Source: a virus
Taxonomy: Duplodnaviria; Heunggongvirae; Uroviricota; Caudoviricetes
Reading direction: 5' to 3' (one strand)
Length of the DNA stretch: 5,616 nt
Virus record (IMG/VR): IMGVR_UViG_2778261085_000003
Location: 1-5,616 of that record
This document shows positions 4,547 through 4,969 of the stretch, piece by piece. The number at the start of each line of letters is the position of its first letter. Positions within the stretch are counted from its first letter, which is position 1. The position numbers and the translations under genes were made by a program. The notes beneath the pieces were generated by a model, which was not told the origin of the DNA, did not search any database, and saw only the letters and a list, made by a program, of their open reading frames with translations.

Positions 4547-4969
4547 ATGGCAAAAGTATTTACACAGGAAGAGCGGGAAAAAATTAAAGGGCAGGTTGTT
4601 GAACTTGTGCGCCTGAACGGGCGTGAGACGTTACGACAACTGGAAACTAAAACAGGGACAACAAGATATCTGATAAGTACTCTCGCCAAAGAGCTGGTTG
4701 CCAGTGGTGACGTATACAACTCTGGCTACGGGTTATTCCCGTCAGAACAGGCTCGTAAGGACTGGCAAAACGCCCGCAAAAAACTCTCGAGGGCAAAGGT
4801 GAAGAAACCATCTGTGGTTGATCCGGATCTTATCTTTTTATTACCAGACGGGGAAATCCGTCGCTACGACAGGCGTCAGAACATAATTTGTCGCGAATGC
4901 CGGAAGAGCGAAGTTATGCAGCGTGTACTGGCGTTTTATTTGGGAAATTTTCAGGAGATATTATCGTGA
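4547..4969 (+). CDS. Hypothetical prophage protein, 140 aa, with helix-turn-helix-like N-terminus
   Basis: ORF in track; strong ribosome-binding site (GGGAGGG about 5 nt upstream); segment RETLRQLETKTGTTRYLISTLAKELVASG looks like a helix-turn-helix; basic C-terminal half. Function not recognised. Confidence 0.8.
   Translation: MAKVFTQEEREKIKGQVVELVRLNGRETLRQLETKTGTTRYLISTLAKELVASGDVYNSGYGLFPSEQARKDWQNARKKLSRAKVKKPSVVDPDLIFLLPDGEIRRYDRRQNIICRECRKSEVMQRVLAFYLGNFQEILS

Follow-up and report, generated by a model that had tools for sequence, protein, structure and literature searches.

Gene content of the window

We analysed a stretch of 5,616 nt of viral DNA (hereafter the window), which corresponds to positions 1 to 5,616 of the IMG/VR record IMGVR_UViG_2778261085_000003 (Caudoviricetes). 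Its gene content places the window in a lambdoid prophage of the Rac/Qin type, of which it is the immunity and replication region. A DicA-like repressor on the minus strand (1047-1454) is followed by a DicC/P22-Cro-like gene (1537-1767), a YdaT/CII-like gene (1751-2284), a DnaT-domain/O-like initiator (2199-3314), and a lambda-P-like loader, present in the list of ORFs as a protein of 221 aa starting at ATG 3103 (3103-3768, plus strand). The plus strand then encodes a YdaW-like DUF1627 protein of 242 aa (3802-4530; PF07789, E 3.5e-56), the DUF977/Ren-like (LygF) protein studied here (4547-4969), and an interrupted Ead/Ea22-like frame (4966-5385).

The initiator gene contains iteron-like direct repeats, i.e., three copies of ~25 nt with ACCCAAAAACGG (2560-2584, 2649-2673, and 2715-2739, plus strand) and two exact copies of CAAAGACACCCAAA (2691-2704 and 2713-2726). 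By analogy with lambda, these repeats are probably a prophage replication origin within the initiator gene. The loader ORF overlaps the end of the initiator (3314) by 212 nt. Later starts are found in relatives, giving a loader of 180 aa in one locus (L004) and of 153 aa, with an overlap of 8 nt, in a RefSeq locus (L002), and the true start of the loader is probably near the stop codon of the initiator. The DUF1627 protein seems to be built from two winged-helix-like segments (residues ~1-50 and ~70-125) and a variable acidic linker. Its C-terminal helix is invariant (LRRAK-x2-VQKWERVCA-x-LRELN).

The DUF977 reading frame

The DUF977 gene (4547-4969, plus strand) starts with an ATG and comprises 140 codons followed by a TGA (4967-4969), exactly as given in the preliminary description of the locus. 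It is separated by 16 nt from the stop codon of the DUF1627 gene (TGA, 4528-4530), and reading the sequence revealed a Shine-Dalgarno-like GGGAGGG (4537-4543) 3 nt 5' of the ATG. We found no promoter- or terminator-like consensus match between the two genes. An Rfam scan of the window matched no family, with no structured RNA in or around the DUF977 gene, and the search for operator-like repeats or palindromes around the gene returned nothing convincing.

The gene had been described as confidently coding, and the comparison with its relatives bears this out. Relative to 42 distinct ungapped relatives, we counted 398, 432, and 1431 substitutions at codon positions 1, 2, and 3, and 1167 synonymous versus 695 non-synonymous codon changes. 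Of 82 relatives, almost all keep a reading frame of 140-143 aa. The DUF977 ORF is real and under purifying selection.

The four nucleotides GTGA (4966-4969), again read from the sequence, join the stop codon of DUF977 to the GTG start of the next ORF, whose product matches the Pfam family Ead_Ea22. An overlap of 4 nt between the same two genes is also annotated in the RefSeq relative L002 (8084-8506 and 8503-8757). The overlap from which translational coupling had been proposed is therefore present, but the downstream frame is interrupted by an in-frame TGA (5098-5100) and any coupling would lead into a fragment of 44 codons.

This TGA splits the Ea22-like frame into a piece of 44 aa (4966-5100) and a piece of 90 aa in the same frame (5113-5385). 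The homologue in the Stx1 phage AU6Stx1 (L178, 1501-2679) is an uninterrupted ORF of 392 aa, which reads ...VCQKWKGEPGGVIAECH... versus ...VCQKRN*EADGVIAECH... in the window. The two-piece arrangement recurs in the loci L004-L007, which encode a DUF977 protein identical to that of the window, with 98-99% identity to the 44-aa and 90-aa pieces. The comparison with AU6Stx1 points to a nonsense mutation or a pseudogene.

Family identity and distribution

The preliminary description presented the protein as uncharacterised, which overstated the case. The protein matches the Pfam family DUF977 (PF06163) over its full length (residues 1-136 on positions 1-134 of a profile of 134), with an E-value of 6.4e-30 and a score of 104.4 bits for a gathering cut-off of 22.1. 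It also matches PHROG 142, the "Ren-like exclusion protein" (E 4.6e-46), as do divergent members of DUF977 (E 1e-16 to 1e-32). Relatives with 85-91% identity are named "DUF977 family protein" in RefSeq and "LygF" in phage records; the latter come from Rac-type, mEp460-type, and Stx phages, including phages of E. coli and Shigella. The gene name lygF is also given, without a function, in the Sdf region of Salmonella Enteritidis (PMC4490851). We found no difference of substance between the window protein and the DUF977/LygF proteins of Rac-type prophages and of the Sdf region. Mentions of LygF or DUF977 in the literature were limited to naming or fold assignment. The family is clear, and its function is defined only by the genetic phenotype of lambda ren described in 1980. 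The gene is already known, being catalogued in Pfam, PHROG, RefSeq, and under the name LygF, and it carries little weight as a discovery.

It is also a very common prophage gene. DNA relatives were found in 3718 of the 5426 complete E. coli genomes (about two-thirds), with up to five copies per genome. The exact protein of the window occurs on 31 contigs of draft assemblies, and the closest copy among complete RefSeq genomes differs by ~9% in DNA from the allele of the window. An exhaustive phmmer search of 1.84 billion cluster representatives retrieved only 102 of them, which indicates that DUF977 is a compact and largely enterobacterial family. Two multi-stretch matches of 581 aa (P0209 and P0218) were discarded as unrelated repeat proteins. 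We also rejected the assignment as a defence protein, since the window protein matched no NCBIfam model and no family of the PADLOC defence models at E ≤ 0.1, a library that covers defence and not counter-defence proteins.

Homology to lambda Ren

In a BLASTP comparison with lambda Ren (NP_040633, 96 aa), NIICRECRKSEVMQRVLAFY aligned to NLVFKECRQSAAMKRVLAVY, with 11 of 20 positions identical and 16 of 20 positive (E 1e-6). When 14 diverse DUF977 proteins were aligned together with the LygF of Rac and with Ren, the residues N112, E117, C118, S121, M124, and R126 were invariant, whereas C115 was conserved on the DUF977 side and replaced by Phe in lambda Ren. The signature common to both is N-x2-[CF]-x-E-C-R-x-S-x2-M-x-R-V-L-A-x-Y, which in lambda Ren takes the form N-L-I-F-K-E-C-R-Q-S-x2-M-K-R-V-L-A-V-Y. 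When the DUF977 family was aligned by hhalign to a Ren family built separately, the match (probability 96.5%, E 8e-10) extended over the helix-turn-helix (HTH) core and the C-terminal motif. Lambda Ren falls below the Pfam threshold for DUF977, and it matches the profile of PHROG 142 with an E-value of 1.6e-41. The shared motif, the profile-profile match, and the common PHROG make the window protein a long-form Ren homologue; by these comparisons, the ORF is shown to encode a Ren-family protein (DUF977/PHROG 142/LygF).

The two proteins share a winged helix and a two-helix C-terminal element in their AlphaFold models, and both are basic (pI 9.8 for the window protein, 9.9 for Ren). Each gene is located in its early-right operon, after the replication genes. 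Global identity is low (~23%) and limited to the HTH core and the motif of ~20 residues. The window protein exceeds Ren by 44 residues; it has an extra helix (residues 67-83) and a disordered linker (84-105), and Ren lacks its GxFPSEQ...W motif of the wing and helix 4. The ren gene overlaps the end of the loader gene (O-P-ren), whereas in the window DUF1627 intervenes and the overlap is replaced by the gap of 16 nt.

According to the supplement of bioRxiv 10.1101/2021.04.19.439022, heteroimmune lambda carrying ren mutations shows impaired growth on Rex+ lysogens, and the suppressor mutations are located in O and P. For Ren, yeast two-hybrid assays detected an interaction with RexB (bioRxiv 10.1101/2021.04.19.439022; PMC3224144), and BACTH assays detected interactions with RexA as well as RexB (supplement of the same preprint; PMC3224144). 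The preprint also describes lambda Ren as "likely involved in DNA replication".

Protein architecture

The AlphaFold2 model of the window protein has a mean pLDDT of 76 and three parts. The N-terminal domain (residues ~7-83; 4565-4795, plus strand) is predicted with high confidence (pLDDT 88-93 over residues 11-80). It comprises helices at residues 7-24, 29-36, and 40-53, wing strands at 57-59 and 62-64, and the extra helix at 67-83. R26, T28, Y57, G62, F64, and W73 are near-invariant in this domain. The HTH-like N-terminus noticed previously is more specifically a winged helix, in agreement with the model, its fold matches, and an earlier HHpred/COMPASS analysis of DUF977 (PMC2686095). A basic, proline-containing linker follows (residues ~84-105, including KVKKPSVVDPD; 4796-4861, plus strand). 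It is predicted to be disordered (pLDDT < 50 for residues 85-98), varies in length and sequence in the alignment, and is absent from lambda Ren. The Ren-type C-terminal element (residues ~106-140; 4862-4966, plus strand), supported by the conserved motif, hhalign, and BLASTP, is modelled as short helices (116-119, 122-132, and 135-139) with moderate confidence (pLDDT 54-78). It carries the motif Y107-D-R-x2-N112-x2-C115-x-E117-C118-R119-x-S121-x2-M124-x-R126-V-L128-A-F130-Y. This motif may serve in protein contacts or in dimerisation.

This architecture changes the reading of the C-terminal half. The protein is indeed basic, but the lysine- and arginine-rich tail of the preliminary description is not one unit: KKLSRAKVKKP is the end of helix 4 together with the variable disordered linker, whereas the conserved Ren-type motif includes RRYDRRQN and CRECRK. 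The Cys-x2-Cys had rightly been set apart from zinc fingers, although it is not isolated, since it is part of the Ren motif. We rejected a zinc finger or zinc ribbon, which has four Cys/His ligands and usually two CxxC knuckles, because the protein has two Cys and no His, so a monomer cannot form such a site. It is very improbable that C115-x2-C118 is a metal or redox site central to function. Within DUF977, C118 never varies and C115 hardly does, and four thiolates could in principle come from a homodimer. Yet these are the only candidate ligands, lambda Ren has Phe at the first position, and both Cys lie in predicted helices rather than in a knuckle.

The model of a Ren-type protein of 96% identity (pLDDT 79.5) has the same plan, with a winged helix (residues 3-60) and helices at 74-80 and 83-95, but without the extra helix and the linker. 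PDB searches found no solved structure of DUF977 or Ren. Foldseek matched the window protein only to generic winged helices (GntR, MarR, ArsR, MntR, the N-terminal domain of MotA, and Zalpha), and the Ren-type model to ArsR/SmtB proteins (AntR, CadC, HlyU), AspA, and MarR, with weak E-values. The similarity to histone H2B in a phmmer search of the PDB was noise, as the E-value of 1.5e-3 was obtained only with a tandem-duplicated chain and rose to ~1 for single chains.

Zalpha domains (PKZ, ADAR1) contact Z-DNA by an Asn and a Tyr of the recognition helix, and their P-P-x-W wing is characteristic. The best PDB profile match was to such a domain (4lb5, E 9e-4), and another superposed closely on a local part of the fold (4kmf, rmsd 1.0 Å over 51 columns). 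The PKZ segment TVNRHLYSL pairs with the DUF977 consensus tvrrylkkl, in which Asn is replaced by r and Tyr by k, and the wing of DUF977 reads G-x-F-P-S instead of P-P-x-W. We rejected a Zalpha-like binder of Z-DNA since the contact residues are not conserved.

The main alternative to a Ren-like role is that of a conventional dimeric transcription regulator with a winged helix (ArsR/MarR/GntR-like), which would bind a specific operator of the phage or the host and dimerise through its C-terminal helices. We regard this as unlikely. The winged helix is modelled with high confidence, almost all fold and profile matches are DNA-binding regulators, with ArsR/SmtB and MarR the best ones for the compact Ren-type model, and there is a match to the PHROG 2391 "DNA binding protein" (E 9e-6). 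The high pI and the ArsR-like recognition helix of distant DUF977 members (T-V-R-R-Y-L) fit as well. The resemblance extends to fold class and size, and the helix after the wing could mediate dimerisation as in ArsR/SmtB and MarR proteins. However, none of the fold matches is strong (the best E-values are 2e-3 to 9e-3), and the Pfam regulator models all stay below their thresholds (e.g., MarR_2 scores 14.4 bits for a threshold of 27), hence we rejected membership in MarR, ArsR, or GntR and retained a likeness at the level of the fold. The R-R pair of the recognition helix is S-T or N-Q in the clade of the window protein and in lambda Ren, no operator-like palindrome stands out around the gene, and the strongest conservation in the family is in the C-terminal motif and not in the recognition helix. 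The ArsR/SmtB and MarR regulators have no counterpart to the Ren motif, the window protein has no metal or ligand site, and we found no regulatory role in the literature consulted on lambda ren. The nucleic-acid binding suggested in the preliminary description stays at the level of an inference: DNA binding by the window protein is plausible, but its recognition helix, like that of Ren, lacks the basic R-R pair of the distant members.

Genomic context

We surveyed 92 loci encoding DUF977 with enough upstream DNA, most of which are close relatives from E. coli and not phylogenetically independent. DUF977 was behind a replication module in 88 of them, directly in 32 and after DUF1627 in 56. The 56 DUF1627 genes directly upstream of DUF977 followed a lambda-P-like loader (19), a DnaC/IstB-like loader (36), or a contig edge (1). 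The gene directly upstream of DUF977 encoded an HTH_36/O-like initiator in 19 of the 92 loci, a 358-aa initiator-like protein in 12, and an IstB-like loader in one. In four loci DUF977 was elsewhere than behind a replication module. More distant members add further contexts: one directly follows an IstB-like loader (L014), one lies between an initiator and a Lar-like gene (L015), one is in an early-left recombination operon (L016), and one is on a non-prophage island (L012). The constant feature of DUF977 loci is the ren-like position behind the replication module.

The sequence of DUF977 did not follow the type of module. Between the four classes of replication modules (lambda-P-like, DnaC/IstB-like, HTH_36 initiator alone, and 358-aa initiator) DUF977 identity was 89-93% (up to 100%), versus 88-94% within classes, and proteins with 96-100% identity adjoined different modules. 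We therefore found no co-variation of DUF977 with the type of replication module. This bears on the possibility that the protein is an accessory subunit of the phage replication machinery that binds the initiator or the loader, e.g., modulating the stability of O or the theta-to-sigma switch. Its place directly after the replication genes in 88 of the 92 loci, with or without DUF1627 in between, is in line with such a role, as are the O and P suppressors and the description of ren in the preprint on RexAB and Ren cited above. Such a subunit is nonetheless improbable, given nearly identical proteins after four unrelated types of modules, without class-specific divergence, and members of the family away from replication genes.

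The preliminary description had proposed to check whether the gene forms a conserved pair with the 242-aa gene upstream. In the reverse survey, DUF977 was 7-16 nt downstream of DUF1627 in 75 of the 80 loci encoding DUF1627; in the other five the slot held a different small HTH protein or Ea22. The association is thus strong but asymmetric (75/80 versus 56/92) and not obligatory: the pair is frequent, but 36 of the 92 DUF977 loci lack DUF1627. Consequently, we rejected an obligate pairing and consider it quite improbable that the protein and DUF1627 (YdaW) make up an obligate cassette in which the two act together, either as a complex or as a counter-defence pair. Beyond the close spacing, a cassette would agree with the winged helix and conserved C-terminal helix found in both proteins, with the weak alignment of the middle segment of DUF1627 (residues 70-120) to the winged helix of DUF977 (hhalign 67%, E 5e-5), and with the recovery of ydaW as a blocker of the retron-Sen2 toxin RcaT (bioRxiv 10.1101/2020.06.22.160242). 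Yet lambda Ren has no DUF1627 partner, and the slot after DUF1627 can be filled differently. Also, the identity of DUF1627 to the copy in the window ranges from 48 to 100% while that of DUF977 stays at 86-91%, which indicates that the two recombine independently.

Proposed function

We consider the chances about even that this Ren-family protein acts like lambda Ren, i.e., as an early accessory protein that guards the phage from Rex-type exclusion through protein contacts. The gene lies in the early-rightward operon, shortly after the replication genes, and by analogy with lambda its product would be an accessory early factor and not itself a replication enzyme. It would shield the early phase of replication from abortive-infection-type (Rex-type) exclusion by resident prophages. 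The action would occur mainly through protein contacts, for which the invariant C-terminal element is the candidate surface of contact or dimerisation, and the winged helix could serve as a DNA tether or as a second protein-binding face.

Since the sequence of DUF977 does not change with the initiator or loader upstream of it, the target is more likely to be a constant component of the host or of a prophage. That DUF977 is uniform across modules and beside a varying DUF1627 speaks against a protein adapted specifically to the initiator, the loader, or DUF1627. Members outside replication modules (L016, L012) count against an anti-exclusion role, as do the low and local identity to lambda Ren, the DUF1627 gene between the loader and DUF977 in the window, the lack of a PADLOC match, and the moderate confidence of the modelled C-terminal element. 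There is no rexAB beside the repressor in this type of prophage, so the exclusion system that it would counter is hypothetical.

A bolder extension of the anti-exclusion reading, which we think distinctly unlikely, is that the C-terminal element of DUF977/Ren is a portable counter-defence motif that binds and neutralises a conserved Abi component (a RexB-like protein or another membrane or Abi effector). With DUF1627/YdaW, it would form a widespread two-gene anti-defence cassette behind the replication genes of most E. coli lambdoid prophages.

The value of the analysis is modest. It makes the link between DUF977 and lambda Ren explicit and structural, and the long form of DUF977 pinpoints an element of ~25 C-terminal residues as the conserved functional core. 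That the protein does not depend on which replication module it accompanies favours a target in the host or in a prophage. Mutants of the motif and complementation of lambda ren would give a handle on how Rex exclusion is evaded.

Other genes of related prophages

In L117, L120, and L123 (~3700-4030), where DUF1627 is not followed by DUF977, and just after DUF977 in L014 (5426-5707), another small protein is encoded, of ~90-130 aa and with motifs like those of sigma-70 region 4 and HTH_23. This suggests that lambdoid genomes have at this position a mosaic slot for alternative small HTH proteins. The protein of 356-358 aa (MANAWLRLWHDMPNDPKW...) that occupies the position of the initiator directly upstream of DUF977 (L018, 3890-4957, and 11 similar loci) had no Pfam match at E ≤ 0.01. 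Its tail, RCVNHISEPD-x-EIPPGFRG, is common to a truncated upstream ORF of L087, where the region upstream matches an HTH_36-type initiator.

The loci L004-L007 carry genes of LT-II-type heat-labile enterotoxin ~5-7 kb downstream of DUF977, between the antiterminator and the holin, with matches to a Pertussis_S1/Scabin-like A subunit, Enterotoxin_a, and LT-IIB. Since these prophages encode a DUF977 protein identical to that of the window, the window probably comes from an LT-II-converting Rac-like prophage.
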